Shown: positions 33,906-33,928 of the stretch, piece by piece
How the letters are laid out: every line of letters starts with the position of its first letter
Numbering within the stretch: the first letter of the stretch is position 1
Assembly: GCF_003790525.1 (NCBI RefSeq)
Contig: NZ_CP033635.1
Direction: 5' to 3' (one strand)
From: Escherichia coli
Lineage (GTDB): Bacteria > Pseudomonadota > Gammaproteobacteria > Enterobacterales > Enterobacteriaceae
DNA length: 64,000 nt
Position numbers and translations under genes: made by a program
Notes under the pieces: model-generated
Database searches by the model: none
Seen by the model: only the letters and a program-made list of their open reading frames with translations
What the model was told of the DNA's origin: nothing

Positions 33906-33928
33906 AATAAGGATGTTGTAACTAAAGT
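33906..33928. promoter_or_regulatory. replication terminator site TerB (Tus-binding), in the tus promoter region
   Basis: 'aataaggatgttgtaactaaagt' contains the Ter core GTTGTAACTA; differs at one base from the K-12 TerB I recall (AATAAGTATGTTGTAACTAAAGT); 10 bp upstream of the tus ATG. Confidence 0.75.

Follow-up and report, generated by a model that had tools for sequence, protein, structure and literature searches.

The 23-bp element that lies directly upstream of tus in this E. coli genome is the well-known TerB replication terminator and tus operator, here with G at Ter position 7 (G7), where K-12 carries T (T7). G7 is a common natural E. coli allele and no peculiarity of this genome. 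Compared with other terminators that bear the same base, it is very probably a neutral or nearly neutral allele that would leave the mechanism of TerB unchanged. The polymorphism has already been described in kind; a known element is present in a known variant.

In the window, which is the whole 64-kb stretch of DNA analysed, positions 33906-33928 of the + strand read AATAAGGATGTTGTAACTAAAGT. TerB of K-12 MG1655 is AATAAGTATGTTGTAACTAAAGT (NC_000913.3, 1684225-1684247, with K-12 tus at 1684259). Alignment of the locus to NC_000913.3 1682500-1685500 demonstrated that 22 of the 23 bases are identical and that Ter position 7 is the sole mismatch; the two alleles compared are AATAAGTATG... and AATAAGGATG.... 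The earlier note had given T for this position of K-12 TerB and had considered that the reference might itself carry G; the alignment confirms the T. Searching the window with the K-12 TerB 23-mer yielded a single matching place, with exactly one mismatch, and the same 23-mer remained unmatched in 100 shuffles with up to three mismatches allowed. The Ter core GTTGTAACTA likewise occurs once in the 64 kb (0.09 copies expected by chance). Together with A8 and T9 it forms ATGTTGTAACTA at 33913-33924, which is identical in K-12 TerB. G6 is present, so that the C(6) lock base pair is intact. The site ends 10 bp before the tus ATG, exactly as in K-12. That the 23-mer resembles a Ter site by chance alone and has no terminator function is hardly conceivable: we found no point in its favour, no shuffle gave a match, the site occupies the syntenic place 10 bp 5′ of tus, and a Ter site with invariant G6 and A8 lies directly 5′ of tus in 103 species among the matches listed. 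This reading was rejected. The coordinates of all features are compiled in Table 1.

Table 1. Features of the TerB-tus region, in window coordinates
Feature	Position	Strand	Basis
rstB, upstream neighbour	32562..33863	+	ORF and annotation; stop codon 42 bp before TerB
Predicted -35, TGGTCA, 17 bp 5′ of the -10 hexamer	33878..33883	+	4/6 match to TTGACA
Predicted extended -10, TGcTATAAA (TG 33898-33899, hexamer TATAAA 33901-33906)	33898..33906	+	manual reading; last base is Ter position 1
TerB, 23-bp Tus-binding replication terminator	33906..33928	+	one mismatch to K-12; placed and oriented as in K-12 with respect to rstB, tus and fumC
Ter position 6, G; its complement C(6) is the base flipping into the Tus pocket	33911..33911	+	sequence; role from PMC8707476 and PMC8347550
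Ter position 7, G here, T in K-12	33912..33912	+	K-12 alignment
Ter core GTTGTAACTA, Ter positions 10-19	33915..33924	+	one match in the window
tus, 309 codons plus stop, encodes the TerB-binding protein	33939..34868	+	ORF; annotated tus in SMS-3-5 and others

The gene order rstB-TerB-tus-fumC, with fumC following tus on the opposite strand, is that of K-12. A GTG at 33927, which appears in the mechanical list of open reading frames, is not the annotated tus start. The encoded Tus protein matches K-12 Tus in 308 of 309 residues; residue 23 alone differs, being A in the window protein and I in K-12. Codon 23 lies at 34005-34007. Ala23 is also found in Tus of E. albertii and of an Escherichia lineage representative labelled E. 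coli (L030); Ile23 of K-12 is therefore the derived state. The A23 protein (WP_001295399.1) is common to SMS-3-5, ATCC 8739, Res13 and FCI51. Co-variation of the I23A exchange with G7 was considered, and linkage explains it, the two sites being ~90 bp apart. The + strand of the window has a GC skew of -0.03, and the K-12 tus region, read in this orientation, shows the same sign; the usual replication fork would therefore first reach TerB at its position-23 end, the permissive one. Gene order and GC skew within the 64-kb window thus indicate, indirectly, a TerB orientation that fits a fork trap.

The Tus-Ter fork trap is an established mechanism. At the window site, Tus would bind the 23-bp TerB. 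A fork arriving from the position-1 side would unwind the duplex as far as C(6); this base would flip into a pocket of Tus and lock the complex, whereas a fork from the position-23 side would displace Tus. TerB would also act as the operator in the repression of tus by Tus itself. The determinants of both roles are intact, namely the G6/C6 pair, A8, T9 and core positions 10-19, together with a nearly identical Tus and an ATG that follows at the same distance of 10 bp. Location of TerB within the tus promoter and autoregulation of Tus via TerB have been reported (PMC8707476; PMC8347550), and repression of tus by Tus is known in K-12 from Roecklein et al. (1991), as cited in PMC8347550. The placement in the tus promoter region that the earlier note had proposed agrees with the position of the site just before the ATG. 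Compared with the K-12 locus, with which the window TerB shares neighbours, orientation, G6, A8 and core positions 10-19, there are three further upstream SNPs, located in the rstB-tus spacer (33869, 33877) and in the promoter spacer (33893, 33895 region); none of them falls inside the predicted -35 or -10 hexamers.

The frequency of the two alleles was determined in 5,426 complete E. coli genomes with 40-mer queries (window 33900-33939) carrying the SNP at base 13, so that each 28-base megablast seed word spans it. Longer allele queries of 65 bases failed to split the alleles, because many genomes carry linked SNPs beyond the 23-mer and so fell short of 100% identity. Any match to the G7 40-mer was obtained in 2,781 genomes (~51%, a frequency of the database, which leans to clinical lineages, and not of natural populations) and any match to the T7 40-mer in 2,628, the two summing to 5,409. 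Alignment confirmed G7 in ATCC 8739, Res13-Lact-ER02-39 and FCI51 (from matches to the G query) as well as in ST131 EC958 (from the 65-mer search), and T7 in Z0117EC0056 and EC42405 (from matches to the T query) and in the K-12 reference; every spot-checked genome carried the predicted allele. Exact 40-mer matches resolved several haplotypes, of which the K-12 type was found in 2,331 genomes, the ATTAAGG type (O157:H7, ATCC 8739) in 1,256, the window type in 796 and the ST131 type, which has the 23-mer of the window and a G-to-A exchange three bases past Ter, in 567. The exact 23-mer of the window is consequently present in at least 1,363 genomes, SMS-3-5 and ST131 among them. K-12 TerB is merely one among several common E. 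coli haplotypes, and a base other than that of K-12 at Ter position 7 is no reason to report an anomaly.

These numbers also bear on the reading that the G arose through an error of sequencing or assembly, or as a mutation private to one isolate. Nothing beyond the difference from the K-12 reference speaks for it. It is refuted by the identical 40-mer in 796 independent complete genomes, with G7 in 2,781, and by the 2-kb tus region, which is 100% identical to that of SMS-3-5 and of more than 20 other, unrelated isolates; the chance of an error or private mutation is negligible.

A minority TerB haplotype with a 1-bp insertion, ATAAAGTATGTTGTAACTAAAGT, was observed in E. coli Z0117EC0056 and EC42405. 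Upstream of it the rstB-tus spacer is diverged (GGCTGTCGATAC), and its TerB 23-mer equals that of E. albertii. Judged from these sequences, the haplotype may stem from an ancient lineage or belong to a segment that was imported.

Compatibility of G7 with Ter function is suggested by two other K-12 terminators. TerC (ATATAGGATGTTGTAACTAATAT) combines G7 with an otherwise canonical core, as does the window TerB; it differs from the latter at positions 2-4 and 21-22 and in having no association with the tus promoter. TerG (GTCAAGGATGTTGTAACTAACCA) was not found in 2.295-2.340 Mb of the K-12 genome and is located at 2.377 Mb within menH. Its positions 4-20 (AAGGATGTTGTAACTAA) are identical to the window TerB, G7 included, whereas the outer positions 1-3 and 21-23 differ, and it lies inside a gene far from tus without an operator role. 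TerC, the innermost terminator, is where forks are mainly arrested in wild-type cells (PMC10331603). In ChIP-seq with Tus-GFP, only six high-affinity sites, TerA-E and TerG, were occupied (Toft et al. 2021, PMC8707476); the coverage of TerG (410x) was similar to that of TerB (430x), and the same study characterises TerG as binding Tus strongly and forming the lock. In a comparison of the ter sites of different phylogroups, Goodall et al. (2021) list position 7 as variable (PMC8347550). According to the passage of that paper citing Coskun-Ari & Hill (1997), position 7 has no base-specific contacts with Tus and little effect on complex stability. A later review by the Goodall et al. group gives 1-2 SNPs per 23 bp for terB across phylogroups (PMC10331603). 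The earlier note had placed position 7 outside the strictly conserved core. This wording needs a correction, as the position is usually drawn within the core region 6-19, but it is the known variable position there (PMC8347550) and the single core position at which exchanges are known to be tolerated.

By analogy to K-12 TerB, TerC and TerG, the window TerB would bind Tus and arrest forks in a polar manner. From TerC and TerG, and from Coskun-Ari & Hill (1997) as cited secondarily, we infer that the G7 and T7 forms would be functionally equivalent. Since position 7 is without base-specific Tus contact, fork arrest and autoregulation are expected to be essentially unchanged. The suggestion of the earlier note that G7 could modulate Tus binding or tus autoregulation is unsupported, and some evidence speaks against it: the base occurs in about half of the genomes and in the high-affinity sites TerC and TerG (PMC8707476), and position 7 is tolerant of exchange as reported in the cited passage of PMC8347550.

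The position of the SNP relative to the tus promoter nevertheless deserves consideration, as it is the basis of the main competing view, that G7 is a functional regulatory variant which alters the tus promoter near its start, or the occupancy of the operator by Tus, so that G7 and T7 lineages differ in Tus levels or in the efficiency of arrest at TerB. We consider this unlikely. A strict sigma-70 consensus scan of 33750-34000 called no promoter; it missed the -10 element listed in Table 1 because the hexamer ends in A. Our literature search returned no mapped tus transcription start, and a search of PMC4499146 for mentions of base 7 yielded nothing useful. Reading the sequence by eye, we predict that transcription would start at Ter position 8 (33913, the invariant A), which would place the SNP at about -1. 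On this numbering TerB would extend from -7 to +16 of the predicted tus promoter. Such coverage fits the published self-repression of Tus via TerB (PMC8707476; PMC8347550). Since both the last base of the -10 element and the start of transcription would lie within TerB, bound Tus would occlude RNA polymerase and thereby set its own level.

The proposed geometry is accompanied by similar sequences in related bacteria. The extended -10-like motif TGTGCTATA adjoins the Ter site in Escherichia, Citrobacter, Salmonella, Enterobacter, Kosakonia and other genera, and a GGTGGTCAGG-like sequence is kept at -35 distance in the Citrobacter and Escherichia loci. In many Enterobacteriaceae genera TGTGCTATA is found together with a GGTGGTCAGG / CTGGCCTGAC -35-like block 5′ of the tus-proximal Ter (window 33878-33906; loci L010-L127). 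This suggests a conserved promoter-operator architecture at the tus-proximal Ter.

Tus-proximal Ter sites of other species were collected by one DNA-pattern scan of species-representative genomes, in which a Ter core had to be followed within 5-35 bp by ATG-NNNNNN-TAYGAYYT. At least 119 matches were obtained, and in 103 of those listed the downstream ORF encodes a Tus orthologue (38-94% identical). Like the window TerB, these tus-proximal Ter sites of other Enterobacterales, the 'vicinal' Ter of Toft et al. (2021, PMC8707476), have the same orientation; they precede the ATG of tus by 6-30 bp. G6 and A8 are present in every one of the 103 sites; positions 10-19 were set by the search pattern, and their constancy across these loci is no independent evidence. 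The window has G7, whereas most of these sites have T at position 7 (93 of the 103, against 8 with G, 1 with C and 1 with A). Carriers of T7 include E. albertii (ATAAAGT), Salmonella (AGATAGT) and Citrobacter (AAAAAGT). G7 was confined, among the matches listed, to five Pantoea loci, one Pluralibacter MAG, one Cedecea isolate and L030, whose Tus is 94% identical and whose site begins AATAAGG like that of the window. T7 is the usual tus-proximal state outside E. coli, and both states are common within E. coli. The counts of G7 and T7 genomes and the presence of T7 in 93 of 103 species among the matches listed are new numbers, absent from the published five-genome comparisons.

Eight Pantoea loci (L037, L058, L066, L086, L096, L099, L103, L124) contain a second GTTGTAACTA core ~45 nt 5′ of the tus-proximal Ter in the same orientation, so that two tandem Ter-like sites precede tus. 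The proximal site in these loci combines an unusual G or A at position 7 with C9 (GGACGTTGTAACTA).

Because T7 is strongly preferred, position 7 is less free at the tus-proximal site than positions 1-5 and 20-23, and its bias exceeds the expectation for a truly free position. This could be explained by a mild constraint from the overlapping promoter, and the strong preference for T7 in other species is the only hint toward a promoter effect. With the -10 hexamer TATAAA ending at Ter position 1 and A8 as +1, a T-to-G exchange at -1 would change the sigma-70 start context: the usually preferred pyrimidine-purine context is lost and a second candidate purine start is added. The almost even distribution of the alleles in E. 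coli would be compatible with both being maintained. However, the placement of the promoter is itself a prediction that the strict consensus scan did not call. The even distribution follows major lineages (G7 in ST131, O157:H7 and SMS-3-5, T7 in K-12) and needs no selection, since shared descent explains the pattern. Furthermore, substitutions at position 7 have little effect on Tus binding according to the secondary citation in PMC8347550, and the G7-bearing TerC and TerG are high-affinity, lock-forming sites (PMC8707476). It is even more doubtful that the base at about -1 shifts the start, the basal strength of the tus promoter or operator occupancy to such a degree that the two major allele classes, each found in about half of the genomes, differ in steady-state Tus and hence in the occupancy of the weaker outer Ter sites. 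A small promoter-level effect of G7, with the SNP at the predicted -1, is a small residual possibility to which nothing points. Were G7 to affect the autoregulation of tus, it would provide a natural handle on Tus dosage versus use of the fork trap; the current evidence points away from this and towards a neutral or nearly neutral G7.

The window is derived from an SMS-3-5-like strain. Positions 2904-55000 are 99.99-100% identical to the corresponding stretch of SMS-3-5, two insertion differences aside. SMS-3-5 has ISVsa5 (IS4-like) beside asr (L129 6762-8087), which is missing from the window (junction 9653-9665), and the strain is therefore not SMS-3-5 itself. The window in turn contains an 11.4-kb integrated element (12295-23719) that splits tqsA, the AI-2 transporter gene; E. 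coli CM2 has this element as well, whereas the SMS-3-5 region lacks it. The CM2 annotations of this element comprise a tyrosine integrase, an HTH regulator, a HicB antitoxin, an Icd-like protein and DUF4222, together with a RepA-family helicase, SSB, two PerC regulators, a major capsid protein and a head decoration protein. Judged by this gene content, it resembles a PICI-type, capsid-forming phage satellite.
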